A stretch of DNA of 64,000 nucleotides from an uncultured Rikenellaceae bacterium (GCA_964389685.1 CAYMFM010000001.1:71089-135088); one strand, 5' to 3'. Shown: positions 36,434 through 53,238, counted from the first letter of the stretch. Translations and numbers: made by a program. Notes: generated by a model not told the origin, from the sequence alone.

Positions 36434-37324
36434 TTGAAGATCTCAATTAACCAACTGAACAAAATCTATAAGAACGGGACCCAGGCACTGAAGGATGTGA
36501 ACCTGGAGATCGAAAACGGCATGTTTGGTCTATTAGGTCCTAACGGAGCGGGAAAATCTACGTTGATGCGTATCCTGGTTACGCTGATGAAACCCTCTTC
36601 TGGAACGATCAAGGTAAATGACTGGGATCTTCAGAAAAACAGACGGCATATTCGTTCCTTGCTGGGATATCTCCCCCAGGATTTCCGATTCTTTTCAAAG
36701 CTGAAAACCTGGGAATTCCTCGATTATTCAGCCGGATTGGCTGGATTAAAAAGGGGGAAACTCAGAAACCAGCAGGTTGATGAGATGTTGGATCAGGTCG
36801 GATTATATGAGGTAAGGGACCGCATGGCAAATAAACTGTCGGGTGGCATGAAAAGAAGATTGGGCATCGCACAGGCGCTGATCGGAGATCCCAGGATAAT
36901 CGTGGTGGATGAACCCACAACCGGACTGGATCCGGAGGAACGGATCAAATTCAGAAACCTCCTGTCGGACATGAGCCAGAAGGATATCATCATCGTGCTG
37001 TCAACCCATATTGTGGCTGATATCTCCAGCACCTGTAAAAACATGGCCCTGCTGAATGAAGGAGAAGTGGTTTTTAATGGGCCACCTGAGCAACTGATCG
37101 ATGTGGCAAAAGGCCATGTCTTTCTGATTCAGGCTACAATGGGTGATTTTGAAACCATCAAGGAGCGGTTTCCTGTAATATCCACCATCCCTTCTGAAAC
37201 GGGATGGGAAGTGCAGGTTGTGGCGGACACGATCGATGGTTTTCATGCTGAAAAGATCCATCCGAGCCTGGAACATGCCTACGTTTATTTTATGGAATAT
37301 CAACAGGATCGTACGGTGTATTAA
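36434..37324 (+). CDS. ABC transporter ATP-binding protein (free NBD, paralog of the NBD fused to the RND protein)
   Basis: Walker A GPNGAGKS (36536-36559), Q-loop GYLPQDF, signature LSGGMKRR, Walker B IIVVDEPTTGLD and H-loop LSTH. TTG start. Confidence 0.9.
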   Translation: MKISINQLNKIYKNGTQALKDVNLEIENGMFGLLGPNGAGKSTLMRILVTLMKPSSGTIKVNDWDLQKNRRHIRSLLGYLPQDFRFFSKLKTWEFLDYSAGLAGLKRGKLRNQQVDEMLDQVGLYEVRDRMANKLSGGMKRRLGIAQALIGDPRIIVVDEPTTGLDPEERIKFRNLLSDMSQKDIIIVLSTHIVADISSTCKNMALLNEGEVVFNGPPEQLIDVAKGHVFLIQATMGDFETIKERFPVISTIPSETGWEVQVVADTIDGFHAEKIHPSLEHAYVYFMEYQQDRTVY

Positions 37325-37387: not shown

Positions 37388-40300
37388 ATGTTATCCATTA
37401 GAAAAATATCCATTATTGCACGCTTTGAGATAAAAACCCTCCTAAGAAGCTGGTTTTTTCGGATTTTCGCGGGACTCTCCCTGGTTATCCTGATCTTTTT
37501 TGATATTGCCGGCATCACGGAAGTTGGTGAGGGAATCTGGTTAATCAGGGGAATTCCAGCCAATATTCCATTGGGTAATCTGTTTATGCTGAATATTGCT
37601 CAGGCAATTATTGCTGCTTTCCTTGCAACCGAGTTCCTGAAACGGGATCATAAACTGGATACCACCGAAGTCGTTTACATGCGATCCCTGAGCAATAGTG
37701 ATTACGTGCTTGGCAAGACCCTTGGAATATTAATTGTGTTTTTCCTGTTAAACTTCCTGGTATTAGCCATTGCAGCGGTCATGAACCTGACAAACCCGAA
37801 TATTGCTTTCGATTTGCAGGCGTACCTTATCTATCCTGTCATCATTTCACTTCCCACGCTGATTTACATTTTGGGGCTCTCCTTCCTGTTGATGATCCTT
37901 ATCAGAAACCAGGCCGTAACCATCGTTGTGTTGCTTGGTTATATTGCATCCCTGCTTTTCTATCTGGGTAAGAAATTCTACTTCCTCTTTGATTACATGG
38001 CATTCTCCTATCCCCTCATGAAATCTGATTTTGTTGGTTTTGGCAATACCCTTGAGATGGTTGCACAACGGGGCATCTATTTTTGCCTGGGATGCAGTTT
38101 CATCTTTTTAACCATCATCCTGTTTAAACGGCTGCCCCAGTCCAGAATCATGACCCGGGTATCATGGGTTGCCATGATCCTCCTTTTTGTGGCTGCCGGT
38201 TTGCTCGTTAAGCTTTACATGGATCCCATTTCTCAAGGCAAAAGATTGAGAGAAAACATGGTAGCCCTGAATAATGAATACGTGGATGATCCAACGGTTA
38301 CAGTAACACATTGTGACCTGAACCTGATACACAAAAAAGAGAAGATTGAGGTAACGGCCAGACTTAAATTTGTGAATAACACAGGAGTGGCTATCCGGGA
38401 GTATCTTTTCACCTTAAACCCGGGGTTGGAGGTCCTGGAAGTTTCTCGTAACGACGATTCATTATCGTTTGAACGGGATCTGCACCTGGTGCGGATTCAA
38501 CCAGAAAGCAACCTCTCACCAGGGGCAGAGGATTCACTGATCCTGCGGTATCAAGGGGTAATTAATAACCACGCATGCTATCTGGATATTGATGAATCCA
38601 TCCGGTCCGGTGAATTACGGCTGGATATGCTAACCGTGCATCGCAGGTATTCGTTCGTAACCCCTGAATACCTTCTTCTGACAGGTGAACTTTTGTGGTA
38701 CCCTGAAGCCGGGGTAAATTATTGCTCCACCATCCCGGGCTATCACAGAACAACCTTTGTGAAGTATACGTTAACGGTATCTTCTGATAAACACCTTGAA
38801 GCATTTTCTCAGGGTCAGATGAACCGTATGAGTGATGGAGTCTTTCATTTTGTCCCGGAAAATCCTTTATCCCGGTTATCTCTGGTGATCGGAAAGTATA
38901 TCCGGCGAACCATATCGTGTGATTCGGTTGAATATAACCTGATGACACTGCAGGGTCATGATTACTTTGAACCCTATATGAATGAGCTTGGTGATACACT
39001 CATTCCGGTGATCCGGGAGCTCAAACAGGATTATGAACGGGAAATAGATTTGCCCTATCTATTCCCAAGATTCTCCCTGGTGGAAGTGCCCATCCAGTTT
39101 ACATCGTATCCCAGGTTTTGGACCATGAGCCAGGAAACGGTTCAGCCGGAAATGGTCTTTCTTCCTGAAATGGGACTACCCATATGGCAGGCAGATTTTA
39201 AAGCAGGATTAGACCGGCAGAAAAGAAATGCCGAGAGAAATAACCAGGTTATATCTGATAAAGAGCTCCAGGCAAAGCTGCTGGGTCAGTTCATTCGTGC
39301 CATTATCACAACAGGGAACCAGGAAACATGGTTCTATGGGGGAAACATCGGATATGGAAGAAGCGCCTATTCCATATACCCCAATTATTGTAATTATGTG
39401 TACTATATTAAATCAGAGAGCTGCCCCATTGTCAATATGGCACTGGAATCTTACCTTGATAAAGGGGCTGCAGAATCTAATGATTTCTGGAGCAGAAACT
39501 GGCGTGGATTAAGTGATGAAGAGACAGCCAACCTTGCCCTGCAGGAAAATAGCTTCGACCAGATCCTTCTTGATCCGGAAGAAAACGAGGTGATTTACCA
39601 TGTAATCCGGCTCAAAGGATTTTACCTCTTTACCCTGCTGGAAAGTAAAATTGGAGCGGAACAATTTAAAAAATCATTGTTGTCTCTGCTTGGAGAGCAC
39701 TCATTTGAATCCCTGGAACTGGAGAAACTTGGCCAGGCCTTCCAGAAGGAGTATTCACTGGATGTCCAAACCCAGGTAGATGACTGGTTCAAAAGCGATC
39801 AATTACCCGGATTCCTGATTGGTGGTTTGGAAAGCTACGAATTCATTGACGGTGACCGAACCCGCTACCAGGTCCGGTTTAAGGCATCCAATCCGGAACC
39901 GGTTGAGGGATTGTTCATGTTGAGCTTCAGGACAGGAGATAGTGAAGGTGACCCTAAGTATTACAGCGGGAGCGGGTATTACAGCGGGCCACAGGGAAGC
40001 GATGAAACTGCAAGCAAGATAATTTATCTTGAACCGGGACAAACCAAGGAGATCGGAGCAGTCCTGGATGCCCAACCCCGATCATTGACCATCAATTCTG
40101 TGATTTCACAGAATATTCCATCCATCATTGATTTTAACTTTGGTGAAAATGAAGTAAATCGCAGGGCATCAGCATTTGATGGAGAACGAGTACTCCGGTC
40201 AGATTTCTCTTTTGAGAATCCGGATGAAATTATTGTTGACAATGAAGACCCTACCTTTGAACTGGTTGAAGCCTATACGGACAGTTATTTGAGGAAACTG

Positions 40301-40747
40301 GTTAAGGAGCATTCCAAAACAGAGGAACAAAAATATACCGGAGTTCGCTGGTGGAGACCTCCAGTGAATTGGCAGACCATTACACAATCGGGGTTCTATG
40401 GTAAATACATCCGCTCCGCAGTGTATACCAAATCAGGATCCGGGGAGAATAAAGCAATCTGGAAAACACCAATAGAGGAGGAGGGATTTTATGATGTATA
40501 TTGTCACATTGGTGATGCAACGGGCGTCTTATACACGGACCGAAACCAGCAGAATGCGAAATACCATTTCAAGGTTTTTCATGATGAAGGAATAGAAGAA
40601 ACCATTATGGAACTTCAAAACAGCGAGAATGGATGGAATTTCCTGGGGACCTATTTCCTCTCATCCGATACGGCAAAAGTGGAGATGTCAAACGACTCCG
40701 AAGGAAGAATGGTCGTTGCCGATGCCATAAAATGGGTGAAACAATAA
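37388..40747 (+). CDS. ABC-2-type permease (7 predicted TM) fused to a large extracytoplasmic M1-aminopeptidase-like domain lacking HExxH, plus a C-terminal beta-sandwich-like module
   Basis: N-terminal 280 aa contains 7 hydrophobic helices and an ABC-2-like segment TTEVVYMRSLSNSDYVLGKTLG. Residues ~295-390 (VTHCDLNLIHKKEKIEVTARLKFVNNTGVAIREYLFTLNPGLEVLEV...LILRYQG) resemble the M1 peptidase N-domain. There is no HExxH anywhere in the 1119 aa. The last ~130 aa (GFYDVYCHIG...AKYHFKVFHDEG...NGWNFLGTYFLSSDTAKVEMSN...VVADAIKWVKQ) match the pattern I associate with golvesin-C-terminal-like domains. Confidence 0.6.
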   Translation: MLSIRKISIIARFEIKTLLRSWFFRIFAGLSLVILIFFDIAGITEVGEGIWLIRGIPANIPLGNLFMLNIAQAIIAAFLATEFLKRDHKLDTTEVVYMRSLSNSDYVLGKTLGILIVFFLLNFLVLAIAAVMNLTNPNIAFDLQAYLIYPVIISLPTLIYILGLSFLLMILIRNQAVTIVVLLGYIASLLFYLGKKFYFLFDYMAFSYPLMKSDFVGFGNTLEMVAQRGIYFCLGCSFIFLTIILFKRLPQSRIMTRVSWVAMILLFVAAGLLVKLYMDPISQGKRLRENMVALNNEYVDDPTVTVTHCDLNLIHKKEKIEVTARLKFVNNTGVAIREYLFTLNPGLEVLEVSRNDDSLSFERDLHLVRIQPESNLSPGAEDSLILRYQGVINNHACYLDIDESIRSGELRLDMLTVHRRYSFVTPEYLLLTGELLWYPEAGVNYCSTIPGYHRTTFVKYTLTVSSDKHLEAFSQGQMNRMSDGVFHFVPENPLSRLSLVIGKYIRRTISCDSVEYNLMTLQGHDYFEPYMNELGDTLIPVIRELKQDYEREIDLPYLFPRFSLVEVPIQFTSYPRFWTMSQETVQPEMVFLPEMGLPIWQADFKAGLDRQKRNAERNNQVISDKELQAKLLGQFIRAIITTGNQETWFYGGNIGYGRSAYSIYPNYCNYVYYIKSESCPIVNMALESYLDKGAAESNDFWSRNWRGLSDEETANLALQENSFDQILLDPEENEVIYHVIRLKGFYLFTLLESKIGAEQFKKSLLSLLGEHSFESLELEKLGQAFQKEYSLDVQTQVDDWFKSDQLPGFLIGGLESYEFIDGDRTRYQVRFKASNPEPVEGLFMLSFRTGDSEGDPKYYSGSGYYSGPQGSDETASKIIYLEPGQTKEIGAVLDAQPRSLTINSVISQNIPSIIDFNFGENEVNRRASAFDGERVLRSDFSFENPDEIIVDNEDPTFELVEAYTDSYLRKLVKEHSKTEEQKYTGVRWWRPPVNWQTITQSGFYGKYIRSAVYTKSGSGENKAIWKTPIEEEGFYDVYCHIGDATGVLYTDRNQQNAKYHFKVFHDEGIEETIMELQNSENGWNFLGTYFLSSDTAKVEMSNDSEGRMVVADAIKWVKQ

Positions 40748-40799: not shown

Positions 40800-42296
40800 A
40801 TGATGAAGATCAATCAAACCCTTTCGCAGACGAAAAAACTTCTGATTCCCCTGTTGTTTTTTTCGTGGACTCAACCTTCGGGTTTGTCACAAACACTGGT
40901 TACGCTGGAAAAGGCACTTGAAATAGCGGAGATAAATAGTCCGGATATCCGGCATTCCAGGTTGAATCTCCAGCGCTATGAGGAGACATTGAATGCTCAG
41001 TATGCCTCCTATAAATCGAAGCTGGCTCTTTCAGTTACGCCCCTCTATTACAGCCATGGACGGGAATTCTACGAATTCTATTCCACCTGGAATACCAGCG
41101 AAACATTTCGGTCATCCGGTGCTTTTACCATCTCACAACCCATTAAGATCACCGATGGTATCCTGACAATTTCAGACCGGTTCTCTTTCCAGAACTCCTA
41201 CAGTGAATTCAGTGATGAAACCAACCAGGCATTCAGCAACAACCTCTATATCCAGTTCGATCAGCCACTCTTTACCTACAACCGGTCAAAAATGCAGCTT
41301 AAAGAACTGGAGCTGGATTATGAGAATGCTGCCCTGAGTTATGCCATTCAAAAACTGGCGATTGAAAAAAACGTTACCCAGAGTTTCTATAATGTCTTTG
41401 ATTATCAAATGGGCCTTCAGATTGCTGAGGAGGAATACAAGAACCAGCAAATCAGTTATGAAATTATTAAAAACAAGGTGGAAGGCGGGTTGTCAGCCAT
41501 GGAAGAGCTGTATCAGGCTGAACTAAACCTGATGACCAGTAAATCAAACCTTCAGAACCAGCAGGTTGCTCTGGAGAACGCAAAGGATGCATTCAAACAG
41601 CTCATCGGTCTCTCTCTTTACGAAGAAATAGCCGTACTGGCGGACGTATCCATTCCTGAAGTGACCGTTGAAATGGGAAAAGCAATAGATCATGCACTGA
41701 AAAACAGGATGGAACTCCGGCAACGGGAGATCAGTATTGAAAATTCACAGTTTGAAATGATCCGAACAGCCGCGATGAATGAGTTCAAAGGGAATGTATC
41801 CGTTGCTGTTGGTCTCTTCGGAGATGATGAAAAGGTGCAGAACATCTATTCCTCACCCACCGATAACCAGCAGGTGAGTGTGTCGTTCGAGATTCCCATC
41901 TGGGACTGGGGTGAGAAAAAAGCCCGGCTCAAAGCAGCGGAAGCAGCCATGCAATCTCAGGAACTCTACCTGGAAGACGAAAACAACAACATCATCATCA
42001 ACATAAGAACCATTTACCGTAATTTGCAAAACCTTCTGACACAAATTGCAATAGCGGATCAAAACCAGAAAAATGCTGAACTCACGTACGAGATTAACCT
42101 GGAACGGTACCGAAACGGAGACCTTACCAGCATGGATCTCAGCCTGTTTCAAAATCAGCTCTCAGAAAAGAAAATTGCCTATTCAAGAGCATTGATCAAT
42201 TATAAAATTGAACTGCTGAACCTGAAGATCCAATCATTATGGGATTTTATCGAAAACAAATCCATCGTCCCGGAAGAGTTCACCCGGTCAGGTTGA
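40800..42296 (+). CDS. TolC-family outer membrane efflux protein
   Basis: 498 aa with a signal peptide. It has two OEP-type repeats with coiled-coil segments, e.g. LEKALEIAEINSPDIRHSRLNLQRYEE and AELTYEINLERYRNGDLTSMDLSLFQNQL. Confidence 0.85.
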   Translation: MMKINQTLSQTKKLLIPLLFFSWTQPSGLSQTLVTLEKALEIAEINSPDIRHSRLNLQRYEETLNAQYASYKSKLALSVTPLYYSHGREFYEFYSTWNTSETFRSSGAFTISQPIKITDGILTISDRFSFQNSYSEFSDETNQAFSNNLYIQFDQPLFTYNRSKMQLKELELDYENAALSYAIQKLAIEKNVTQSFYNVFDYQMGLQIAEEEYKNQQISYEIIKNKVEGGLSAMEELYQAELNLMTSKSNLQNQQVALENAKDAFKQLIGLSLYEEIAVLADVSIPEVTVEMGKAIDHALKNRMELRQREISIENSQFEMIRTAAMNEFKGNVSVAVGLFGDDEKVQNIYSSPTDNQQVSVSFEIPIWDWGEKKARLKAAEAAMQSQELYLEDENNNIIINIRTIYRNLQNLLTQIAIADQNQKNAELTYEINLERYRNGDLTSMDLSLFQNQLSEKKIAYSRALINYKIELLNLKIQSLWDFIENKSIVPEEFTRSG

Positions 42297-42313: not shown

Positions 42314-43429
42314 ATGAGGAACCATCCAAAACCGAAACATAATACACTGAAGATAATGAGTACAAATCCATTCAATTTGAAAAATTCGATTCTTGTCGTC
42401 GTAGTAATTACCACCCTGCTATCCTCCTGCCACAACCGGGAAGATGAGCTGGATACGGAGATTGCCGTTCCCGTTACAGTGGAGGAAGTCAAAGCCAGAT
42501 CGATTGAGCAATACGTTTCTTCAACGGGTAATGTTCTTCCAACCAAGGAAGTGTTACTTAAATCCCAGATTCCGGGCTATTACCGGGTAATGATTAATCC
42601 CGTTACCGGCCGGAAATTTGCACTGGGGGATATCGTAAAACAGGACCAGATCATCATTCAGTTGGAAGATCCAGCCTTTGAGAATGAGATAAAAATTGAA
42701 TCGCAAAAGCTCAACCTGGATATTTCTGAACGGGAATTCAATAAACAGCAATCGTTGTATGATAAAGGGGGAGTAACACTGCGGGAGTTGAAGAATGCAG
42801 AGATCAGCTTTATCAATGCGAAATATGCCTATGAGAATGCCCTCCTGCAGCTGGAAAAAATGAACATCAAAGCACCGTTCAAAGGAGTCATTGTCGACCT
42901 GCCGTATTATACGGAAGGGACACGGATTGAAGCGTCACTTCCCATGGTGAAACTCATGGATTACAGCCAGCTTTACCTGGAGATCCAAATGCCGGAAAAG
43001 GAACTGGGGAAAGTGAAGGTTAATCAACCGGTCCGGATTATGAATTATTCCCTGCCGGAGGATACCCTGTCGGGAAGCATTACCCAGTTGTCTCCGGCTA
43101 TTAATTCTGAAACAAGAACATTTAAGGGATCGGTCATGATCGCAAATCCAAACCTCCTGCTTCGACCGGGTATGTTCGTTCGGGCTGAAATCGTGGTAGC
43201 CAGTGAAGATAGTACCATCGTAATCCCGAAAGATATTATCCTCGTTAAACAGCGCGGCAAAACCGTCTTCGTTGTCGATAAGGGAGCAGCAGAAGAACGA
43301 ATCCTGGTGACCGGCCTTGAAAATCCGACTCACATTGAAGTGATTGGAGGACTGGAACTGAATGAGAGGCTGGTGGTCAGTGGATTTGAAACCCTCAGAA
43401 ACCAGTCAAAGGTGAGAATTATCCGGTGA
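42314..43429 (+). CDS. efflux periplasmic adaptor (membrane fusion protein) lipoprotein
   Basis: Lipobox LLSSCH, a biotinyl-lipoyl-like hairpin and coiled coil, APFKGVIVDL, and C-terminal LRPGMFVRAEIV...VIPKDIIL. Confidence 0.85.
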   Translation: MRNHPKPKHNTLKIMSTNPFNLKNSILVVVVITTLLSSCHNREDELDTEIAVPVTVEEVKARSIEQYVSSTGNVLPTKEVLLKSQIPGYYRVMINPVTGRKFALGDIVKQDQIIIQLEDPAFENEIKIESQKLNLDISEREFNKQQSLYDKGGVTLRELKNAEISFINAKYAYENALLQLEKMNIKAPFKGVIVDLPYYTEGTRIEASLPMVKLMDYSQLYLEIQMPEKELGKVKVNQPVRIMNYSLPEDTLSGSITQLSPAINSETRTFKGSVMIANPNLLLRPGMFVRAEIVVASEDSTIVIPKDIILVKQRGKTVFVVDKGAAEERILVTGLENPTHIEVIGGLELNERLVVSGFETLRNQSKVRIIR

Positions 43430-43470: not shown

Positions 43471-46400
43471 GTGAAAAAAATAACTGAATTTTCCGTCAAT
43501 TATCCCATAACCATTTTTATGATCGTTCTGGCAGTTATTCTGCTTGGCATCATATCGTTTGGCAAACTGGGAATAGACCTGTTTCCTGATCTGAATAACC
43601 CGAGAATATTCGTTGAAATAAAAGCCGGTGAAAAACCACCGGAGGAGATCGAAAAACAATATGTGGAAAATATTGAATCGCTCTCTATCCGACAGAAAGG
43701 AGCCATTCAGGTCTCTTCAATATGCAGGGTTGGATCAGCTCAGATTACCGTTGAATATTCCTGGGATACAGACATGGATGAAGCATTTCTTGACCTTCAG
43801 AAAACCTTAACAGGCTTTGCCCAGAATGCTGAAATAGAAGAGTTTAATATTACTCAGCACGATCCGAATGCCGTACCGGTGATGATTGTTGGGATTACTC
43901 ACAGCTCCATCAGAGACATGAATGAACTTCGGAAATCGGCAGAGAATTATCTGAGGAATGAGCTGATCCGGTTGGAAGGAATAGCGGAAGTGAAATTATC
44001 GGGCCAGGAGGAGAGTGAAGTATTGATTGAAACGAACAATTACCTTCTCAAGGCGCATAACCTGACCACCAGTGAAATCACCACCAGGATACAGAGCTTT
44101 AACCGAAATGTGTCGGGTGGATCCATTGTCGAAATGGGACGGCAATATATCATTAAAGGCGTTAGCTTGCTTGAGGATCTGGACGACATTGGAAACATCA
44201 TCGTTGGGTACAAATCACCCGAAACTCCAGGAATCGATCAATCAAACCTGACAAATCAGCAAGAGACGGAGGTGAATACCAATAACGTACCGATTTTTCT
44301 GAAAGATGTGGCTACCATCAAATACCAGAATAAAGACCCGGTGAATATTGTACGGATAAACCAGGAGCGGTGCATCGGATTGTCAATCTATAAAGAGACA
44401 AAATTCAATACCGTGAAAGCCGTAAAAGACCTCAAAGAGGCTTTTAAGGATATTCAAAAAGCGCTTCCGGGATATGAATTTGTTGTCATCCGTGACCAGG
44501 GGAACTTTATCACGTCCGCCATTAATGAAGTCGAACAAACCGGATTGATCGGGATTCTGCTGGCCATCATCATCCTGTATCTCTTTCTTCGCCGTATCGG
44601 AACAACATTTATCATCAGTGTTGCCATTCCGGTTTCCATTATTGCCACGTTTAACCTGATGTATTTCAATGGCCTTACCATAAATATCATGACACTGGGT
44701 GGACTGGCACTGGGTGCCGGAATGCTGGTAGACAATGCCATCGTGGTTATGGAAAACATCTTTAGGAACCTTGAATCCGGAATGTCTGTCAAGGATGCAG
44801 CAATCAAAGGAACAGCAGAAGTCGGAGGTGCTATTACTGCCTCAACCATAACCACCATTGTTGTCTTTTTACCCATCGTATACCTGCATGGAGCTTCCGG
44901 TGAGCTGTTTAAAGACCAGGCATGGACCGTTGCCTTCTCCCTGATCTCTTCCCTGTTTGTTGCCATTCTGGTAATTCCTGTTCTGGTTCACCGGTTTTTT
45001 AAAAAACCTCCTGCATTTACCGGTAAGGGATCGGTGCAGTTCAAATGGTATCCTGCCGTGTTGAGCAAAATCATCGATCGCCGATGGATCATTATATCGG
45101 TAGCTACCCTGCTCGTTGCTGCCTCAATCCTGCTCATCCCTCTGGTAGGCAGTGAATTCATGCCCAGCACGGATATAAGGGAATTTTCTCTGGAACTGGA
45201 ATTGCCGGAAGGAACCCAATTGGATCGAACAGCCACCACCGTTAAGACCGTCGAGCAGATAATCATGGATGTCCTGGGAGATGACCTGGATGTAATCTAT
45301 AGTCAAATAGGCCCCTCACCTGAAACAGGATCAGGTGAACAGGCCATTTTTGAGGACGAAAATACAGCTTCAATAAAAATTATCCTGAACAAAGAGGGAG
45401 AGTTTTCCAGCAATACCATCATATCCTCATTGGGGATGGTCCTGAATGATATCCCCGACCTGGAAGTTCGATTCCTCAAGGATGAGACAGCCCTGCAGGA
45501 AATCCTGGGAACCAGTGATGCCCCCATTGAAATAGAAATACAGGGCAAGGATTTCCAGCAGATCGAACAACTCACAGAAGAGGTGGTGGAAGTGGTTGAG
45601 AATATGGACCAGTTGTATAATGTAAAAACCTCTATCGAAGAAGGATTCCCGGAAATTGAAGTTGTTATCGATAGACTCAGGGCAGGAATGTACAATGTGG
45701 ATGTAAATAGCATCAGCAATCAATTGACGGACCAATTGATGGGGAAAAAAGCCGGAGAACTTGAGGATGAGGGGGAAATGAAGGATATAACCATCAAACT
45801 GCCCGATATCAGCCTTTCCCAATTACACAATACGTTGATCAAGAGCGGTACACAAACCTTTCATCTCTCAGATCTGGCAACGATCAAAACTACGGTTGCT
45901 CCCAAAGAGATACATCGGCGGAACCAGACACGCATTGGTAAAATCATGGCTCAGTATAGGGAAGATATTGCCTTCGATCATCTGATACAGCAGCTGGAAG
46001 AAAATATATCGCAAATCGAACTGCCTCCCGATTACAGGATCCAACTGGTTGGTGAAGAGCTGAAACGGAAGGAATCGATGAGTAACCTGACATTCGCACT
46101 GCTGCTTTCCATCATCCTTGTCTATATGGTCCTTGCTTCCCAGTTTGAATCACTGGTCCATCCCTTCACCATCCTGCTTACCATTCCCCTGGCAGGTGTC
46201 GGTGCAGTCCTGATCTTTTTTATCCTTGGACTATCCTTTAACATCATGGCCTATATCGGGATCATCATGCTGGCGGGCATTGCAGTGAATGATTCCATTA
46301 TCCTGGTAGATGTTGTCAATCAACGGATCCGGGAGGGGATGTCCCGGAAAGAGGCAATCATTGAAGGAGGACGGGTCCGTATCCGGCCCATTGTAATGAC

Positions 46401-46605
46401 AAGCATAACTACCATTCTTGCTCTGTTGCCCCTTACCTTCGGATTCGGCGAGAGTGCATCACTGCGGTCTCCCATGGCCCTCGCCGTGATCGGGGGACTG
46501 GTAACATCTACCCTGTTGACACTGGTCGTTATTCCTTGTGTCTATTATGTTTTGGATCAATTGAAAGAAAAATTATCACGCCAAGCCGCAAAGTCACAAA
46601 GATAA
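43471..46605 (+). CDS. RND (AcrB/AcrD/AcrF-family) efflux permease
   Basis: 1044 aa with 12-TM RND architecture. MKKITEFSVNYPITIFM N-terminus, TM4 GAGMLVDNAIVVMENI, TM10 GIAVNDSIILVD, and RIRPIVMTSITTILALLPL. GTG start. Confidence 0.9.
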   Translation: MKKITEFSVNYPITIFMIVLAVILLGIISFGKLGIDLFPDLNNPRIFVEIKAGEKPPEEIEKQYVENIESLSIRQKGAIQVSSICRVGSAQITVEYSWDTDMDEAFLDLQKTLTGFAQNAEIEEFNITQHDPNAVPVMIVGITHSSIRDMNELRKSAENYLRNELIRLEGIAEVKLSGQEESEVLIETNNYLLKAHNLTTSEITTRIQSFNRNVSGGSIVEMGRQYIIKGVSLLEDLDDIGNIIVGYKSPETPGIDQSNLTNQQETEVNTNNVPIFLKDVATIKYQNKDPVNIVRINQERCIGLSIYKETKFNTVKAVKDLKEAFKDIQKALPGYEFVVIRDQGNFITSAINEVEQTGLIGILLAIIILYLFLRRIGTTFIISVAIPVSIIATFNLMYFNGLTINIMTLGGLALGAGMLVDNAIVVMENIFRNLESGMSVKDAAIKGTAEVGGAITASTITTIVVFLPIVYLHGASGELFKDQAWTVAFSLISSLFVAILVIPVLVHRFFKKPPAFTGKGSVQFKWYPAVLSKIIDRRWIIISVATLLVAASILLIPLVGSEFMPSTDIREFSLELELPEGTQLDRTATTVKTVEQIIMDVLGDDLDVIYSQIGPSPETGSGEQAIFEDENTASIKIILNKEGEFSSNTIISSLGMVLNDIPDLEVRFLKDETALQEILGTSDAPIEIEIQGKDFQQIEQLTEEVVEVVENMDQLYNVKTSIEEGFPEIEVVIDRLRAGMYNVDVNSISNQLTDQLMGKKAGELEDEGEMKDITIKLPDISLSQLHNTLIKSGTQTFHLSDLATIKTTVAPKEIHRRNQTRIGKIMAQYREDIAFDHLIQQLEENISQIELPPDYRIQLVGEELKRKESMSNLTFALLLSIILVYMVLASQFESLVHPFTILLTIPLAGVGAVLIFFILGLSFNIMAYIGIIMLAGIAVNDSIILVDVVNQRIREGMSRKEAIIEGGRVRIRPIVMTSITTILALLPLTFGFGESASLRSPMALAVIGGLVTSTLLTLVVIPCVYYVLDQLKEKLSRQAAKSQR

Positions 46606-46626: not shown

Positions 46627-49600
46627 ATGAAATTTATTGTACATAGGAAAACGCTGATCAGCATGTTGTTCATTGGATTAACCTTGCTGGGTTATATATC
46701 CTATAAACACCTCCCGGTTGAGTTGATCCCCAATGCAGAACTCCCTGTGTTGATTGTGAACGTGGCAAGCCCGCTTGAGGTTGATCCGAAGTACATGGAA
46801 AATGCAGCAGTGATCCCCCTGGAAGGGGTGATCGGTTCCCTGGAAGGAATAGAAGAGATTGAATCTACCGCCAGTTCGAGAAGGGGAGTCATCTACATCT
46901 CATTTTCCCAAAAAACAAACATCAAATACGCATACCTGAAATTGCAGGAACGGGTTGAAGTCATAAAGCCAACCCTCCCGGAAGGATTTTATGTCCAGGT
47001 GGTAAAGATTGATATAGAACAGCTATCCAATCAATTCATGGGATTACAGGTGCGGGGCAGTGGAGGTACAGACCGGGTTCGGAACGTGGTGGACCAGGAA
47101 ATCAAACCCGAACTGGAGAATGTGGATGGAATTGCCAGTGTAGAGGTGTTTGGCGGGAGAGAAAAATCGATCGAGATTATCCTGGATGAAGAGGCATGCA
47201 GAGCCCATGGAATCTCTCCGTCACAGGTTAGAAATCTGCTTTCTCAAAGCACAAAAAGCAAAACCTTTGTAGGGGATGTGGTCGAGAATAACCGCCGGTA
47301 TTTCGTGAATGTAACAGCAGAGTATCTTGAGATAGATGATATTCAAAACCTGGTAGTGGATGGCAGGGGCCCCATCTTGCTAAAAGACGTTGCTGAGATC
47401 TTCTTTGGTGTTAAAGAAGAATCATCCTATAGCCGGGTCAACGGAAAAGAAGCCGTTACCATCCAACTCGTCAGGGACCTGCAGGTGAACATGATCGATC
47501 TCTCCCACAGAACCAACGAGGTGATTGAAAAACTCAACCATGATCTGCGCTCAAAAGATATTGAAATTGTTATCCAGAATAATATGGCAGAGACTATGGA
47601 GGAGAATATCAACCTCATCATCCGGCTTGCTCTCATTGGAGGATTGCTGGCCATCTGTTTACTCTGGATCTTCCTTAAAAACCTCCGGTTGGTGGTTACC
47701 GTTGCCCTTGCTATTCCCATATCGGTATTTACGGCATTTAACTTCTTTTATGCTTTTAACATTTCATTAAACAGTTTAACCCTGGTGGGAATGGCCCTTG
47801 CCATTGGTATGCTATTGGATAACAGTGTTGTTGTGCTGGAAAGTATATATCGTATCGCAACCAGGAAAAAAGATGTTGACAAAATAGTGCTACAGGGGAC
47901 AAAGGAAGTATGGCGTTCGATTTTTGCTGGAACCCTTACCACGATGGCGGTTTTTCTACCCTTCCTTTTTGCATCGAACTTTCTCATCAGCCTGCTGGGG
48001 AAACACGTGGGTGTCTCGATCATCTCAACGCTGGGTGTCTCCCTTCTGGTAGCCCTTCTGCTCATCCCAATGACATCCCACTTCTTCCTTAAAAAAGGAT
48101 TGCAGAAAGGGAAGTTGAGGTTCCAGACCTTATCGTCAGATAACCGGCTGGTAAGGATCTATATTGTTTTGCTTAAAGCCTGTATGCGTTTTCCTGCAAG
48201 AACGATCATCGGAGCTGTTTTCCTCTTTTTCATTGCGGTTTTTATTAGCCTGGCAATAAGCATCAGTTCCGTGCAGGAAGTGGATACACCGGAATTTAAC
48301 CTCTATGTAACCATGCCGGGTGGTGCTACCCTGGAAACAACCAACCATATCGTGGAGCAGATTGAAGAAAACATCGAGACCCTGGAAGAGAAAGGTGATG
48401 TAATCAGTAAGGTGTATGAGGAGGAGGCCATTGTGACAATCAATTTGCAGGAAGATTATGAGAAAATCGGTGAACGGACTTTGGCTCAGATAAAACGGGA
48501 GATAAAGGACCGGGTTAGTGATATCCGGGCTGCTGAAATATCATTAGACAGACCCTCTTCAGGGTATGGCGGTGGGGGTATGACGGGTGGAGATCCGGGT
48601 GGCGGATTCGAACGGTTGCTTGGCATCGGCACAGAGGAGGAAAAGGTGTTGATCAAGGGACAGGATTTTGAGCGCATGCGGAATGTTGCCGAAGATGTCA
48701 GGTACTTCCTGGAAAGTCTCTCTTCAATAAACTCCGCATCCATGAGCATTGCCGATAACCGGCCGGAGATCCATATCACCTTCGACCAGCATATCCTGAG
48801 TCAGTATGGTATATCCCTGGCTTCAATCGCAAATGAACTGAATTCTTTCCAGAGCGAATTTTCATCCGGTATTACATTCAAACAGGGGGGTGAGGAATAC
48901 GATATCATCATTAAAAACAGGGCTGAGGAGGAGACACAACCCATGACCATGGATGACCTGAAGCAACTTTCAATACAGGGGGCAAGCGGCAGCAGCTATG
49001 AACTGGAAAACCTGGGGGATATAATCTATGCAACAGGTAACAGTGAAATCAACCGGGTGAACCAGGAAAAACAGATTGAGGTCCGTTACCAGTTTATTCC
49101 GGAAATGCTGGACTCAAAGTCGCTGCTTACTGCTGCAAGACTCGAAATCGACCAGATGGTTGCTGCTCTGCCAATTCCTGCAGGAGTGGCTATTGAGGTG
49201 TTTCATGAGGAGAATGAGTTGAAGGACTTCTATTTCCTGATTCTCGCAGCAATCATATTGATTTACATGATACTGGCAGCCGTATTTGAATCCTTATCAA
49301 CTCCTGTGGTCTTAATGTTCTCTATTCCCCTTGCTGCCATCGGATCCCTCATTGCCCTGATCCTGACAGGAAACTCCCTCTTTAATGCAAATACACTCAC
49401 GGGATTTCTGATCCTGCTGGGGGTGGTGGTGAATAACGGTATTATACTGATCGATTATTCCAGGATCCTCCGACAGCAGGGATTTAACCGGTCCAGAGCC
49501 CTCATGATGGCAGGGCTGGCACGCATCAGACCCATCTTGATCACTGCAGTCACCACCATTGTAGCTATGCTTCCCCTTGCCATGGGGAAGGCAGAATACG

Positions 49601-49700
49601 TAACATCCATCGGAGCTCCGTTTGCCATAACGGTGATCGGAGGATTATCGCTGAGTACCCTGCTTACACTGTTGTTTATTCCAACGTTTAATACCGGACT
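46627..49700 (+). other. RND permease module of the fusion protein (12 TM, two large periplasmic loops)
   Basis: TM4 ALAIGMLLDNSVVVLESIY (D398 N399 at 47818-47823), TM10 LLGVVVNNGIILIDY (N936 N937 at 49432-49437), and TM11-12 IRPILITAVTTIVAMLPLA...LSTLLTLLFIPTF. Confidence 0.8.
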
Positions 49701-51342
49701 CTCCAATGCCCTAACCTGGCTGAATAACCTGGATTGGAAAGAGAAAACAATACAACTTGTTGTATTTGCACTGTTTGTCGCGCTCATTTTTCTTCGGATT
49801 GACCGGGTTGTTATGAAACTTCTTTGCCTGTTTTTGATCATCATATTGATCCCGGGGCTGACCTATTTTGTAAAAACAAGCCTCCGGCAGGCAAAATCAA
49901 AACTCATAGAAGAGAGAGATCCCATAATGATAAAAATCCGAAGCCTGGTTAAAGTGTATGACAGGGATAGCCGATTTATCAGGGAATGGAAGGCTGCACT
50001 GCGAAAAAGAAAAGCCACAGATGGAGAAGAAGCGATGACCCGAAGGCGGTTATTTGAAGATCTGATCTGGCAGATGCCCCTGTTAGGCTTCCTCCTCTAT
50101 TTCACCTATTTTTACCTGGAGAGCAAGTTCTGGTTTTTTGTAATGCCTCATATTATCTTCCTTTTCTTCTTCCCGGTTTGGAAACCGGTCAGTATCTTTT
50201 TAAAGGAACGCTCAAAGGAGAAGAAAAAAGCATTCATTAAGCGGATTCAGAATGTTTTTTTAAAGATGATTTACTGGGGCTTCCCGATGCTGAACCTGAT
50301 TCTTTTCCAATTGCGGTGGGATAACCTCATCCTGGTTGTTTTTATCGCAATCTTCTGGTACCTGTTGCTGGGCATTTATGCTATTTCCGATAAGATACAC
50401 CGGGAAGAAATCAATATTTACAGATTGACCGGTAAATTCAAACGGCTCAGAACCAGTCTATACAGGCTGGTGGTTGCCATACCACTGATTGGGCGAAGGA
50501 GGAAGCCTTTTCGTGCTCTTGATGGAGTAACCCTTGAAATTGGAAAGGGAATGTTCGGATTGCTTGGACCGAATGGTGCCGGGAAAACAACCCTCATGAG
50601 AATCATTTGTGGGATCCTGGAACAAAGCTATGGCAAAGTGACAATCAATGGATTTGATACCCTGGAAAAGAGAGAAGAGCTGCAGGGACTGATTGGATAC
50701 CTGCCACAGGAATTCGGCATGTATGAAAACATGACGGCATACGAATTTTTGAACTACCAGGCAATGCTTAAAAACCTCATTGACAAAGAGAAAAGAGAAG
50801 AAATGGTGAATCATGTTCTCTCGTCAGTCCATATGGAAGGGCACAAGCATGAAAAGATCTCCTCTTATTCCGGCGGTATGAAACAGCGAATCGGCATCGC
50901 ACAGATCCTGTTGCACCTGCCACGAATACTGGTGGTGGATGAACCGACTGCCGGATTGGATCCGAGGGAGAGGATCCGGTTCCGAAACCTGCTGGTGGAA
51001 CTTAGCCGGGAAAGGGTAGTCGTTTTTTCAACCCATATCATTGAAGATATTGCCAGTTCATGCAATATGGTCGCCGTTCTGGACCACGGGAAGCTGAAAT
51101 ACCTTGGTGAACCATCAAAAATGGCAAAGATTGCAGAAGGACACGTCTGGCAATTCCAGGTTTCAGCAGAAGCATTTCACCAATTGCAACAAGAACTGCT
51201 GATCGTTCATCACATGCAGGATGGTGATCAGATCAGGGTCAGATGTGTGGCCGAGAAAGCACCGGTACCGGATGCGAAACCGGTGAAAGCCCTGCTGGAG
51301 GATTCATACCTTTACCTGTTGAAAGGAAACACTGAAGCCTAA
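46627..51342 (+). CDS. RND efflux permease fused C-terminally (via extra TM helices) to an ABC ATP-binding domain
   Basis: A continuous 1571-codon ORF. Residues 1-~1030 form a full RND permease, residues 1041-1082 add two extra TM helices, and residues 1100-1571 form an ABC NBD interrupted by a 4-TM insert. See the sub-features and findings. Confidence 0.85.
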   Translation: MKFIVHRKTLISMLFIGLTLLGYISYKHLPVELIPNAELPVLIVNVASPLEVDPKYMENAAVIPLEGVIGSLEGIEEIESTASSRRGVIYISFSQKTNIKYAYLKLQERVEVIKPTLPEGFYVQVVKIDIEQLSNQFMGLQVRGSGGTDRVRNVVDQEIKPELENVDGIASVEVFGGREKSIEIILDEEACRAHGISPSQVRNLLSQSTKSKTFVGDVVENNRRYFVNVTAEYLEIDDIQNLVVDGRGPILLKDVAEIFFGVKEESSYSRVNGKEAVTIQLVRDLQVNMIDLSHRTNEVIEKLNHDLRSKDIEIVIQNNMAETMEENINLIIRLALIGGLLAICLLWIFLKNLRLVVTVALAIPISVFTAFNFFYAFNISLNSLTLVGMALAIGMLLDNSVVVLESIYRIATRKKDVDKIVLQGTKEVWRSIFAGTLTTMAVFLPFLFASNFLISLLGKHVGVSIISTLGVSLLVALLLIPMTSHFFLKKGLQKGKLRFQTLSSDNRLVRIYIVLLKACMRFPARTIIGAVFLFFIAVFISLAISISSVQEVDTPEFNLYVTMPGGATLETTNHIVEQIEENIETLEEKGDVISKVYEEEAIVTINLQEDYEKIGERTLAQIKREIKDRVSDIRAAEISLDRPSSGYGGGGMTGGDPGGGFERLLGIGTEEEKVLIKGQDFERMRNVAEDVRYFLESLSSINSASMSIADNRPEIHITFDQHILSQYGISLASIANELNSFQSEFSSGITFKQGGEEYDIIIKNRAEEETQPMTMDDLKQLSIQGASGSSYELENLGDIIYATGNSEINRVNQEKQIEVRYQFIPEMLDSKSLLTAARLEIDQMVAALPIPAGVAIEVFHEENELKDFYFLILAAIILIYMILAAVFESLSTPVVLMFSIPLAAIGSLIALILTGNSLFNANTLTGFLILLGVVVNNGIILIDYSRILRQQGFNRSRALMMAGLARIRPILITAVTTIVAMLPLAMGKAEYVTSIGAPFAITVIGGLSLSTLLTLLFIPTFNTGLSNALTWLNNLDWKEKTIQLVVFALFVALIFLRIDRVVMKLLCLFLIIILIPGLTYFVKTSLRQAKSKLIEERDPIMIKIRSLVKVYDRDSRFIREWKAALRKRKATDGEEAMTRRRLFEDLIWQMPLLGFLLYFTYFYLESKFWFFVMPHIIFLFFFPVWKPVSIFLKERSKEKKKAFIKRIQNVFLKMIYWGFPMLNLILFQLRWDNLILVVFIAIFWYLLLGIYAISDKIHREEINIYRLTGKFKRLRTSLYRLVVAIPLIGRRRKPFRALDGVTLEIGKGMFGLLGPNGAGKTTLMRIICGILEQSYGKVTINGFDTLEKREELQGLIGYLPQEFGMYENMTAYEFLNYQAMLKNLIDKEKREEMVNHVLSSVHMEGHKHEKISSYSGGMKQRIGIAQILLHLPRILVVDEPTAGLDPRERIRFRNLLVELSRERVVVFSTHIIEDIASSCNMVAVLDHGKLKYLGEPSKMAKIAEGHVWQFQVSAEAFHQLQQELLIVHHMQDGDQIRVRCVAEKAPVPDAKPVKALLEDSYLYLLKGNTEA
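49747..49872 (+). other. two additional predicted TM helices (hairpin) following RND TM12
   Basis: TIQLVVFALFVALIFLRI (res 1041-1058) and VVMKLLCLFLIIILIPGLTYFV (res 1061-1082), followed by the basic segment KTSLRQAKSK. Confidence 0.6.
49924..49968 (+). other. first beta-strand segment of the fused ABC NBD
   Basis: IMIKIRSLVKVYDRD aligns with MKISINQLNKIYKNG at the N-terminus of the free NBD (36434). Confidence 0.55.
49969..50508 (+). other. ~180-aa insertion with four predicted TM helices inside the NBD
   Basis: Helices LIWQMPLLGFLLYFTYFYL, FWFFVMPHIIFLFFFPVW, VFLKMIYWGFPMLNLILFQL and LILVVFIAIFWYLLLGIYAI. The flanking and central loops are Lys/Arg-rich (KAALRKRKA, KERSKEKKKAFIKR, GKFKRLRTSLYR...GRRRKP), which is consistent with a cytoplasmic location. 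Confidence 0.55.
50509..51342 (+). other. core of the fused ABC NBD plus C-terminal accessory domain
   Basis: FRALDGVTLEIGKGMFGLLGPNGAGKTTLMRI (Walker A at 50566-50589), GYLPQEF, YSGGMKQRIGIAQ, ILVVDEPTAGLD and FSTH. The C-terminal AEGHVWQFQV... is paralogous to AKGHVFLIQA... of the free NBD. Confidence 0.85.
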
Positions 51343-51353
51343 ATACGATATCG

Positions 51354-52073
51354 ATGAATTGGAGTAAAAAAGTAGCGAATGGTGTCATCCTGCTGGTAAA
51401 AATGATCCGGTATAACCTGAAGATCGTTTTTGCCAATAAATTCCTCTATTTTCTACTCGCCGCATTCGCATTTTTTGTTCTGGTTACAGTTATTGATCTC
51501 TTTTCCGGAACCGGTGCTACCATTGAGGGGGTCTATTATTTATTGCTGTTCCCGGGAATATTGCTGATCTTCTATCCCACAGCCTTCGGTATACAGAATG
51601 ATGAAGATTCCAGAATGCTTGAAATTATTTTTGGCATTCCCAATTACCGGTACAAAGTATGGCTGGTGCGCCTGGCACTGATCTATCTCATCGTTTTTTT
51701 GCTGTTGCTTGCACTGGGATTACTCAGCTCATTTGCACTGGTCAGGATCCCGGTTTTCGAAATGTCATTCCAGCTGATGTTTCCGATATTCTTTATTGGA
51801 AGCCTTGCCTTTATGCTTTCAACATTGATAAAAAATGGAAATGGTACTGCGGTAGTCATGGTCGTGATCGGAGTTGGATTTCTCATTGCTGCCGAACCCC
51901 TGGCAGATAGTGCATGGAATATCTTTCTCAATCCCTTCGATCTGCCCGGGGATATGAATCAGGTCATATGGGCTGAAGTATCCATGAAAAACCGCCTTTA
52001 CCTTCTGACAGGAATGATCCTTGCCAACCTGTATGGCCTCTATAACCTGCAAGCCAGGGAGAAGTTTGTGTAA
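51354..52073 (+). CDS. ABC-2-type permease-like membrane protein (6 predicted TM)
   Basis: 239 aa, starting 11 bp after the fusion gene. It has six hydrophobic helices and the segment DEDSRMLEIIFGIPNYRYKVWLVRLAL, which resembles the ABC-2 motif after TM2. Confidence 0.6.
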   Translation: MNWSKKVANGVILLVKMIRYNLKIVFANKFLYFLLAAFAFFVLVTVIDLFSGTGATIEGVYYLLLFPGILLIFYPTAFGIQNDEDSRMLEIIFGIPNYRYKVWLVRLALIYLIVFLLLLALGLLSSFALVRIPVFEMSFQLMFPIFFIGSLAFMLSTLIKNGNGTAVVMVVIGVGFLIAAEPLADSAWNIFLNPFDLPGDMNQVIWAEVSMKNRLYLLTGMILANLYGLYNLQAREKFV

Positions 52074-52239: not shown

Positions 52240-53238
52240 ATGGAGGAGAAAAAACAGCTGTTAAACGGATTGTTAGGGATCATTTTTTTTACCTGCTTCA
52301 CTTTCTCTTTAGGAGCTCAGGATAGTTATACTGTGGTGAAAGCCCAAAAGGGAGAAGGGATTTATTCCCTATTAGCCCGGAATAATCTTGCGCCTGCAAA
52401 ATACTTTGATCAGTTTGTTGAGCTCAACGCCGCATCACTGGACAAAAACAATACCCTGATTGAAGGGAAGAATTATAAGATCCCGGTGGTGAGTGAAGTT
52501 GGCCGGTATCCTATCTTCGGGAAAGAGTATGAACTGGTAGAGCGGAAAGATAACCAGCTGGCAGGTGCGGTTTTTTATCTTGTTAGCGGACACGGAGGGC
52601 CGGATTGGGGAGCCAATGTGAAGATTGGGAGCAGAACGGTTTGTGAAGATGAATATGCGTATGATATTACGCTACGGCTCGCCAGGAGATTAATTGAACA
52701 CGGAGCACTTGTGTACATGATCACCCGGGATAACGATGACGGTATACGAAATGAAGAATACCTGAAACCGGATCGGGATGAGACCTGTTACCCGAATCAT
52801 AAAATTCCGGCAAAACAGACGACAAGATTGAGGCAGAGAGCATCCGCCATAAACCAGCTATATCGCAAAAACAGATCCAGATCATACCAGCGTGCAATCG
52901 TTATTCATCTCGATTCGCAAAGCAAAAGCAGTAATATCGATGTCTATTTTTACCACCATCCCAATAGCAAAGCCGGAAAACAACTCTCTGAAACGCTTCA
53001 AAAAACACTGAAAAAGAAATACCAGATCCATCAGCCATCCAGGGGATATACCGGAACCGTCGGAACAAGGAGCTTATACATGTTAAAAAAGACGACACCC
53101 GTTACTACGTTCATTGAGCTGGGAAACATAAGAAATTACCGGGACCAGGTGAGGTTTTTAAAAGAAAACAACCGGCAGGCACTGGCAAACTGGCTTACCG
53201 AAGGATTGATACAGGATTATCGGTTACACCGAAACTGA
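52240..53238 (+). CDS. N-acetylmuramoyl-L-alanine amidase family protein with N-terminal LysM-like segment
   Basis: LysM-like YTVVKAQKGEGIYSLLARNNL...GKNYKIPV. Amidase_3-like LVSGHGGPDWGA...EDEYAYDITLRLARRL...VIHLDS. Confidence 0.7.
   Translation: MEEKKQLLNGLLGIIFFTCFTFSLGAQDSYTVVKAQKGEGIYSLLARNNLAPAKYFDQFVELNAASLDKNNTLIEGKNYKIPVVSEVGRYPIFGKEYELVERKDNQLAGAVFYLVSGHGGPDWGANVKIGSRTVCEDEYAYDITLRLARRLIEHGALVYMITRDNDDGIRNEEYLKPDRDETCYPNHKIPAKQTTRLRQRASAINQLYRKNRSRSYQRAIVIHLDSQSKSSNIDVYFYHHPNSKAGKQLSETLQKTLKKKYQIHQPSRGYTGTVGTRSLYMLKKTTPVTTFIELGNIRNYRDQVRFLKENNRQALANWLTEGLIQDYRLHRN

Follow-up and report, generated by a model that had tools for sequence, protein, structure and literature searches.

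A family of ABC-2 permeases with a predicted pseudo-M1 peptidase ectodomain, encoded in a conserved cluster with RND efflux genes

What use would a membrane transport protein have for the fold of an aminopeptidase? The question is raised by a gene in a 64,000-nucleotide stretch of DNA from an uncultured Rikenellaceae bacterium (GCA_964389685.1 CAYMFM010000001.1:71089-135088; hereafter the window). Its intact open reading frame (ORF), at 37388-40747 on the plus strand, starts with ATG and has 1119 codons, and the relatives of its product can be aligned from residue 1 through the C-terminus. The protein joins a permease of the ABC-2 type (ABC, ATP-binding cassette) to an ectodomain with the fold of M1 peptidases and to a C-terminal Golvesin_C domain. 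Judged from its sequence, the M1 part is a pseudoenzyme in which zinc binding and catalysis have been lost. With moderate confidence, we propose that the whole protein is an ATP-actuated, non-enzymatic periplasmic binding arm that serves an export machine composed of resistance-nodulation-division (RND) and ABC parts; the architecture and the pseudoenzyme character are much firmer elements of this reading than the coupling to a pump or the cargo. The parts of the protein and the evidence for each (AF2, AlphaFold2) are as follows.

37388-40747, plus strand: the complete ABC-2 permease with pseudo-M1 ectodomain and Golvesin_C, 1119 residues (ORF, Pfam, AF2, Foldseek)
37388-38281, plus strand: residues 1-298, interface helix, six-helix transmembrane (TM) ABC-2 core, and an extra helix, TM7, with a helical stalk (253-298) (AF2 helices, Foldseek)
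38300-38950, plus strand: residues ~305-521, beta-rich counterpart of M1 domain I (AF2 strands 305-521; inside the ~650-column Foldseek alignments to M1 enzymes)
38960-39802, plus strand: residues ~525-805, thermolysin-like M1 'catalytic' domain without catalytic apparatus (3CIA profile match to residues 682-823; Pfam Peptidase_M1 at 719-800)
39815-40207, plus strand: residues ~810-940, one or more beta-sandwiches, the first corresponding to M1 domain III (AF2 strands 810-936; extent of the Foldseek alignments to M1 enzymes)
40220-40747, plus strand: residues ~945-1119, Golvesin_C / Xly-CBD-like (CBM6-35-36_like_2) beta-sandwich (Pfam, 6F2P profile match)

The AF2 model, computed with 40 homologues in the alignment, has a mean predicted local distance difference test score (pLDDT) of 81.9 and a predicted template-modelling score (pTM) of 0.78. 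Beyond the membrane part, its secondary structure is beta-rich at 305-521, mixed and mainly helical at 535-802, and made up of beta-sandwiches at 810-960, with a last beta-sandwich extending to residue 1119. No NCBIfam model exists for the protein. An earlier reading of this DNA, made from the nucleotide sequence alone (the sequence-only reading), had described a 1119-residue protein of three parts, namely permease, M1-like and golvesin-like, and this description is borne out by the intact ORF, the AF2 model, Foldseek and Pfam.

When the full model was compared with the PDB using Foldseek, the top matches were M1 aminopeptidases only (E=1.4e-16 to 5e-14, ~650 aligned columns), among them IRAP (8cgp_B, E=1.4e-16), ERAP1, tricorn factor F3 and PepN. 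The family profile also matches the cold-active, LTA4H-like aminopeptidase 3CIA at E=1.1e-7, plus other M1 enzymes. In Pfam, Peptidase_M1 (PF01433) is found at residues 719-800 with E=1.8e-4 and 21.7 bits, which is below the cut-off of 27.7 and covers profile positions 136-218 only; the same domain is detected in 37 of 40 family members. The protein thus has the fold of domains I, II and III in common with M1 aminopeptidases such as PepN, ERAP1/IRAP, F3 and ColAP (3CIA), with sequence similarity in the C-terminal half of the catalytic domain. The relationships to M1 peptidases and to golvesin-like domains that the sequence-only reading had proposed are therefore upheld, the first by Foldseek at E~1e-16 and the second by Pfam. 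That reading had also placed an M1 N-domain at residues 295-390, which was correct as to the identity of the domain but not its extent, as the modelled span is wider (~305-521).

Unlike these enzymes, the protein has no HExxH-(18)-E signature, no GAMEN motif and no domain IV, carries Lys or Arg in place of the catalytic Tyr, and is tethered to an ABC permease. HExxH does not occur anywhere in the 1119-residue protein, nor on the active-site helix of any of the 263 family members compared (121 + 142). Among the 262 relatives (the 120 closest and 142 further representatives at 50% identity), four proteins contain HExxH or HxxEH, always in the N-domain at positions 312-405, and alignment columns 600-700 contain no conserved His. 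Opposite the third zinc ligand, the Glu of LNEGF, the 3CIA profile alignment places a hydrophobic residue, with the invariant E687 three residues downstream. The position of the catalytic Tyr (PepN Tyr381) is occupied by R741 both in the 3CIA profile alignment and in an hhalign comparison with E. coli PepN; across the family, it holds K in 87 of 121 members and R in 20 of 121. The GxMEN/GAMEN exopeptidase motif is absent from the protein as well. The strand past the conserved LVEVP reads ETVQPEMVFLPE, with Q586, P587 and E594 invariant, and by the order of secondary-structure elements it would be the positional equivalent of the GAMEN strand. The hhalign alignment of the family profile to PepN covers only the C-terminal part of the catalytic domain, and the equivalence of the HExxH and GAMEN segments is drawn from secondary-structure order and the 3CIA profile alignment. 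The helical domain IV, which in M1 enzymes caps the substrate cavity, is absent according to both AF2 and Foldseek. The lack of HExxH and of a GAMEN-like motif noted in the sequence-only reading is therefore real, for HExxH on the active-site helix across all 263 members, and the zinc ligands and Tyr to which it had drawn attention show the same loss in the profile and hhalign alignments.

Purifying selection is still evident in the former active-site region, where E583, Q586, P587, E594, D603, E626, E687, K743 and G744 are invariant or near-invariant (Q586, P587, E594 and E687 in all members, K743 in 119 of 121 and G744 in 117 of 121). This pattern may reflect selection for a retained binding surface. 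As all tested catalytic hallmarks are missing family-wide, the earlier suggestion of a substrate-binding or scaffold domain, and not an enzyme, is the best reading of the M1 part. To our knowledge, M1 pseudo-peptidases that act as binding modules are rare, and we know of none on a bacterial transporter.

The M1 part is preceded, in the AF2 model, by an interface helix (4-20) and seven long hydrophobic helices (22-43, 59-89, 103-135, 143-172, 175-196, 221-245 and 253-298), which agrees with the seven N-terminal TM helices predicted earlier. With a model restricted to the transmembrane domain (TMD; pLDDT 72.8), the best Foldseek match is NosY (7o0y_D, E=5.5e-4, template-modelling scores 0.51/0.56), followed by PmtD, ABCG, TarG, Wzm and CcmB/C. 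PF12679 (ABC2_membrane_2) is matched by 19 of 40 family members, with a best E=1e-5, and orthologues are labelled as ABC permeases by JGI and RefSeq. The fold of the NosY/PmtD/ABCG type, the PF12679 matches and an adjoining ATPase of the ABCA/DrrA/NosF type together support the ABC-2 permease claim of the sequence-only reading. Since NosY, the best fold match, has six TM helices, TM7 appears to be an add-on by which the C-terminal ~840 residues reach the other side of the membrane. The strongest conservation in the whole protein is found in the N-terminal helix and in the loops FLKRDKKLDTTEVVYMRS (83-100), IRNQ (172-175) and KRLPQS (247-252). These loops are expected to face the ATPase side, and from that placement we infer that the ~840-residue C-terminal part is periplasmic.

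At the other end of the protein, Golvesin_C (PF25275) is matched at residues 994-1117 (E=3e-15, 56.9 bits against a cut-off of 31.6), as the sequence-only reading had anticipated, and the domain is present in 40 of 40 family members. In a profile comparison, residues 987-1113 match the C-terminal domain of xanthan lyase 6F2P (its residues 922-1038) at E=3e-7. A conserved motif, EIIVDNEDPxF at 947-957, suggests that the domain starts near residue 945 and contains an insertion. The domain class is treated as carbohydrate-binding, and Bacteroides Cbeg4 and Cbeg5, which carry it, have been reported as lectins (PMC9166713); apart from that paper, the literature found under 'golvesin' consists of Dictyostelium marker papers, and a paper on a xanthan CBM (carbohydrate-binding module) had no bearing on this domain. 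The domain match to this class is clear, but here the domain sits on a transporter subunit, whereas elsewhere it is found on a glycan-active enzyme or a secreted lectin.

The best 120 matches all have the full-length architecture, with about 1100-1150 residues, and belong to Bacteroidota, KSB1, Krumholzibacteriota, Calditrichota, Melioribacteraceae and Zhuqueibacterota. When residues 300-810 were compared with 1.84 billion representatives at 50% identity, 873 clusters were retrieved at E≤1e-3, of which 330 also passed E≤1e-30. Where the top 150 entries are full-length, their ectodomain begins near residue 300; the shorter ones resemble fragments. The family is thus large and extends over several phyla of the FCB (Fibrobacteres, Chlorobi, Bacteroidetes) group. 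Orthologues are present in cultured Mariniphaga, Prolixibacter, Sunxiuqinia, Mangrovibacterium, Gaoshiqia, Labilibaculum and Puteibacter; hosts such as Prolixibacter, Mariniphaga, Sunxiuqinia, Mangrovibacterium and Labilibaculum make the question of function directly testable.

Fusions of ABC-2 and M1-type domains have been described as the 'peptidase-fused' family 3.A.1.145 of the TCDB, which is functionally uncharacterised; its Myxococcus xanthus member Q1D520 has 1200 residues, 13 transmembrane segments and an M1 domain called 'zinc dependent' (PMC3924187). In both cases, an N-terminal ABC-2 permease and a C-terminal M1-type hydrophilic domain form one polypeptide, and one TCDB member is, like some of the orthologues here, annotated as 'multi-copper enzyme maturation' (PMC3924187). 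Compared by description, the 1119-residue family differs from Q1D520 in its seven TM helices, in lacking zinc and catalytic motifs, in its additional Golvesin_C and in an obligatory linkage to an RND/ABC gene cluster. We found nothing in the literature on ABC permease/M1 fusions beyond the TCDB survey (PMC3924187).

The cluster in question consists of seven genes, namely the permease gene and the following six.

36434-37324, plus strand: NBD1 (NBD, nucleotide-binding domain), ABC ATPase partner of the permease, 296 residues (Pfam ABC_tran, E=7e-33)
40800-42296, plus strand: OEP, TolC-like outer-membrane factor, 498 residues (Pfam OEP, E=3e-45)
42314-43429, plus strand: MFP, periplasmic adaptor, 371 residues (TIGR01730 RND_mfp, 178 bits, above the cut-off of 94.9)
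43471-46605, plus strand: RND1, RND permease, 1044 residues (Pfam ACR_tran, E=4e-211)
46627-51342, plus strand: RND2::NBD2, RND permease extended by six TM helices and by a second ABC ATPase, 1571 residues (ACR_tran at 2-1021, ABC_tran at 1299-1442)
51354-52073, plus strand: six-TM protein, 239 residues, last gene of the conserved cluster (>5600 homologues, a few of them with PF12698)

We examined the conservation of this arrangement by tblastn, with the window proteins as queries and 81 related loci as targets (80 from GTDB species representatives), and counted in each case the loci with enough flank. The ATPase gene lies directly upstream of the permease gene, in the same order and on the same strand, in 73 of 74 loci, and order and strand are likewise kept for OEP (67/69), MFP (63/65), RND1 (59/61) and RND2 (56/57). 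These loci are drawn from Bacteroidota, KSB1, Krumholzibacteriota and Melioribacteraceae, and identity across them is about 50-80% for the cluster neighbours and about 40% for the permease itself. The 239-residue gene directly follows RND2::NBD2 in L082, L083, L084 and L086, and in L087 a small DJ-1/PfpI gene intervenes. What comes after it depends on the locus (Amidase_3, an unannotated gene, GH16, an M3 peptidase or GH97), as does what comes before the ATPase gene: gltX in the window, and in L001 a GFO/IDH/MocA oxidoreductase that is itself preceded by GH97. Because the genes on both flanks vary between loci, we take the conserved unit to be these seven genes. The sequence-only reading had taken the protein for part of a two-gene ABC system; this view was incomplete, as it overlooked a seven-gene cluster that is fixed across several phyla. 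This context changes the likely identity of 'the pump' to which that reading referred.

Within the cluster, intergenic gaps in the window measure 11-63 bp (11-52 bp among the genes downstream of the permease gene). A promoter and terminator scan of the cluster showed no excess over shuffled sequence, using a sigma-70 consensus that is unsuited to Bacteroidota. An Amidase_3 (N-acetylmuramoyl-L-alanine amidase) gene at 52240-53238, plus strand, begins 166 bp past the cluster and is kept in L082 and L083; it was considered as an eighth member and rejected, not being conserved in distant loci.

Among PDB entries, NBD1 comes closest to the NBDs of ABCA4/3/1/7 (E~1e-54; 4.5e-36 for NosF), and its nearest NCBIfam models are DrrA and GldA, both under cut-off. 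The GldAFG gliding-motility ABC transporter was considered as an identity for this system and discarded: the ATPase scores 192.7 bits against a TIGR03522 cut-off of 402.6, and the cluster contains no GldG-like gene. NBD1 and NBD2 are 40% identical over 272 residues, and in each the Walker A, Walker B, signature and H-loop motifs are canonical. The fusion of RND2 with NBD2 also occurs in L001, L084, L086 and L087 and in many database proteins, where such fusions bear names such as 'efflux RND transporter permease subunit'; it is conserved across phyla. The linker between the two parts is also conserved. Nothing was found in the literature on RND-ABC fusion proteins. The motif of the first beta-strand of NBD2, IxIRNLVKIYDRDSRFxREWK, conserved in 52 sequences, is split from the remaining NBD (from ~1290) by a stretch of ~180 residues with four hydrophobic helices (RND2 residues ~1099-1290, window ~49920-50500), so that NBD2 is predicted to carry a membrane insertion inside its ATPase domain. 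The 239-residue protein has no Pfam match of its own; its homologues span several phyla, with about 60-65% identity among those listed, and a few of them carry PF12698 (ABC2_membrane_3). It probably serves as a second ABC-2 permease, with the NBD fused to RND2 as its partner.

Neither RND protein reaches an NCBIfam cut-off, and the closest equivalog-type models for RND1 are MdtC and MdtB. With tripartite pumps of the MdtABC-TolC type, the cluster shares an OEP, an MFP and two adjacent RND paralogues. Unlike in those pumps, RND2 here has six extra TM helices and an ABC NBD, and the cluster adds two ABC-2 permeases and a second NBD. In TM4, RND1 (43471-46605) and the RND part of RND2 (46627-49689) have 'DN' where AcrB has 'DD', and the TM10 Lys is absent; among orthologues, TM10 has ND or NN in RND1 (32 vs 21) and NN in 54 of 56 cases in RND2. 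To judge from these residues, the paralogues seem to belong to an RND subfamily of their own, in which the proton relay is arranged in an unusual way. A loss of the proton relay in RND2, as a sign of an ATP-driven RND protein, was considered and rejected, as the TM4 Asp is kept in both paralogues and TM10 is variable.

How could these parts work together? The 1119-residue protein would be the membrane-spanning subunit of a NosFY/ABCA-like type V ABC complex, with the upstream NBD1 as its ATPase. TM7 would place in the periplasm an arm of ~840 residues consisting of M1 domains I-III, one more beta-sandwich and Golvesin_C. ATP binding and hydrolysis in the cytoplasm would then move the fused ectodomain by mechanotransmission, a mechanism for which NosDFY provides the precedent. 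Two sites on the ectodomain, the open M1-type groove and Golvesin_C with a glycan ligand, would serve to bind cargo or pass it on; the ABC parts would extract or present that cargo at the inner membrane, and the RND-MFP-OEP duct would expel it across the outer membrane. The domain types would suit a cargo that is peptide- and/or glycan-bearing, and amphiphilic or polymer-linked. Topology, ATP-driven motion of the arm, its physical or functional link to the RND pump and the nature of the cargo are the inferred parts of this model.

NosFY does not pump a solute; instead, the NosY dimer uses ATP to actuate the periplasmic protein NosD. We favour the model of an ATP-moved ectodomain because of this precedent, and because ABCA relatives are exporters with very large ectodomains. 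NosDFY (PDB 7O0Y and others) offers the closest solved TMD fold, its NosF-type NBDs are related to NBD1, and an ATP-driven ABC-2 dimer that actuates a large periplasmic protein is the mechanism that we envisage for the 1119-residue protein. Unlike in our protein, where the effector is fused through TM7 and has an M1 plus CBM-like fold, NosD is a separate beta-helix protein; moreover, the template-modelling score to NosY is just about 0.5. A Nos maturation system as such was considered and rejected: the 17 scanned neighbour ORFs (at least 80-120 residues, 30396-63373) contain no Nos-type domains, NosD, NosZ and NosL included, and the conserved neighbours elsewhere are OEP, MFP and RND. ABCA-type lipid exporters resemble the system in NBD1, which is most similar to their NBDs, and in having, next to a type V TMD, a very large domain outside the cytoplasm. 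In ABCA proteins, however, the ectodomain is an insertion between TM1 and TM2, and its fold is different. A functional likeness to ABCA, such as the hand-off of an amphiphile, is a conjecture from analogy.

A further-reaching version of this model, which we regard as possible yet tentative, is that the seven genes encode one integrated envelope machine. In it, RND2 would covalently join an ABC ATPase to a hetero-oligomeric RND pump, complete with MFP and OEP, this assembly would cooperate with two ABC-2 permeases, ATP and proton-motive force would drive a single export path, and the pseudo-M1/Golvesin arm would be the cargo-holding or gating element. NBD1 with the 1119-residue permease and NBD2 with the 239-residue permease might then pair up as an ABC heterodimer that docks on the RND trimer. 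The fixed tie to an RND pump that has an ABC ATPase of its own does raise the possibility of a hybrid ATP- and proton-driven export machine, and we know of none that has been described.

Several observations weigh against the binding-arm model or parts of it. The evidence that ties the 1119-residue protein to the RND pump is conserved synteny. Its TMD has no Pfam match even at E≤10 and no PDB sequence match, so that its placement in the ABC-2 class is based on the fold (E=5.5e-4, template-modelling score ~0.5), on other family members and on the neighbouring ATPase. Carbohydrate binding by its Golvesin_C is suggested by the domain class. H315, H524, D536, E566, D603, E626 and E687, all invariant, might form an alternative catalytic or metal site; E434 is invariant as well. 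Finally, there are departures from the common gene order: L023 (4062-7496; a Latescibacterota single-cell genome) has an orphan homologue among genes of sugar-acid metabolism with no ATPase or RND gene nearby, and in L015 (5951-10389) an insertion of 4.4 kb separates the ATPase-permease pair from the OEP gene.

Such loci would fit a reading in which ATPase and permease form a stand-alone two-gene ABC-2 exporter whose ectodomain captures or releases a ligand of its own, as the sequence-only reading had suggested, the RND and ABC genes being an independent efflux system that travels along. An NBD and a TMD normally suffice for ABC-2 systems, the orphan in L023 and the insertion in L015 both fit such independence, and in L021 (10001-19324) the ATPase-permease pair alone is tandemly duplicated. 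The source of L021 is a metagenome-assembled genome labelled 'archaeon', which is probably mis-binned. However, gene order is kept in >95% of the loci with enough flank and in at least four phylum-level lineages, the flanks of the cluster are not conserved, and a paralogue of the pair's own ATPase is fused to RND2 within the cluster. We therefore regard an independent exporter as unlikely, while considering it the most serious competitor to the binding-arm model.

Less probable still is an envelope anchor or regulator of the FtsEX type, in which Golvesin_C and the pseudo-peptidase groove would bind the glycan strand and the peptide stem of peptidoglycan, and the ATPase cycle would either set the location of the pump in the cell wall or control a hydrolase that acts on the wall. 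The M1 fold, being designed to accommodate the N-terminus of a peptide, would suit this role, as would a domain of a carbohydrate-binding class, and in the window and its close relatives the next gene after the cluster encodes an Amidase_3. In distant loci, however, genes for GH16, an M3 peptidase or GH97 stand in the place of the amidase gene, and the TMD is of type V, similar to NosY, and not of the type VII FtsX/MacB fold.

Could the ectodomain after all be an enzyme with a non-canonical site, built on another metal site or on Glu and Lys, that processes exported cargo in the periplasm? The invariant or near-invariant E583, Q586, E594, D603, E626, E687, K743, H315 and H524 could be read in this way, but across the family neither the three zinc ligands nor the HExxH general-base Glu nor the catalytic Tyr is retained, the M1 capping domain IV is absent, and the ALES and KxKG motifs are not strictly kept in the wider family; we consider such an activity very improbable and retain the pseudoenzyme reading.

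The public names of the orthologues tell a different story. They include 'xanthan lyase', 'ABC transporter permease subunit', 'golvesin C-terminal-like domain-containing protein', 'hypothetical protein' and 'multi-copper enzyme maturation' permease; none of them is experimental, and none reflects the M1-like part. The label 'xanthan lyase' is given in GenBank to the orthologues of Mariniphaga sediminis, Prolixibacter bellariivorans and Puteibacter caeruleilacunae. It is an annotation error that traces to the C-terminal Golvesin/Xly CBD-like domain alone, and its correction removes a misleading public annotation. PL8 xanthan lyase was rejected as an identity, there being no PL8 catalytic region and no lyase Pfam domain. 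That the proteins are what these names say, either xanthan lyases or NosY-type 'multi-copper enzyme maturation' permeases, is scarcely credible: the names are in public use, the TMD fold is closest to NosY and the C-terminal domain resembles that of 6F2P, but the lyase match is limited to a non-catalytic C-terminal domain of ~120 residues, and the scanned neighbours have none of the Nos domains.

Farther downstream in the window, three genes of a different kind were observed. A 442-residue ATPase with AAA_14 and DUF4143 domains is encoded at 56321-57649 on the minus strand, between a ThuA-like gene and an ORF of 1413 codons. The latter (57933-62174, plus strand) has a partial Peptidase_M14 match at residues 1062-1162 and a weak BcsB-like match at its N-terminus, and it overlaps the start of a 400-residue OMP_b-brl_2 outer-membrane beta-barrel gene (62171-63373, plus strand), with which it forms another large and poorly annotated envelope pair.

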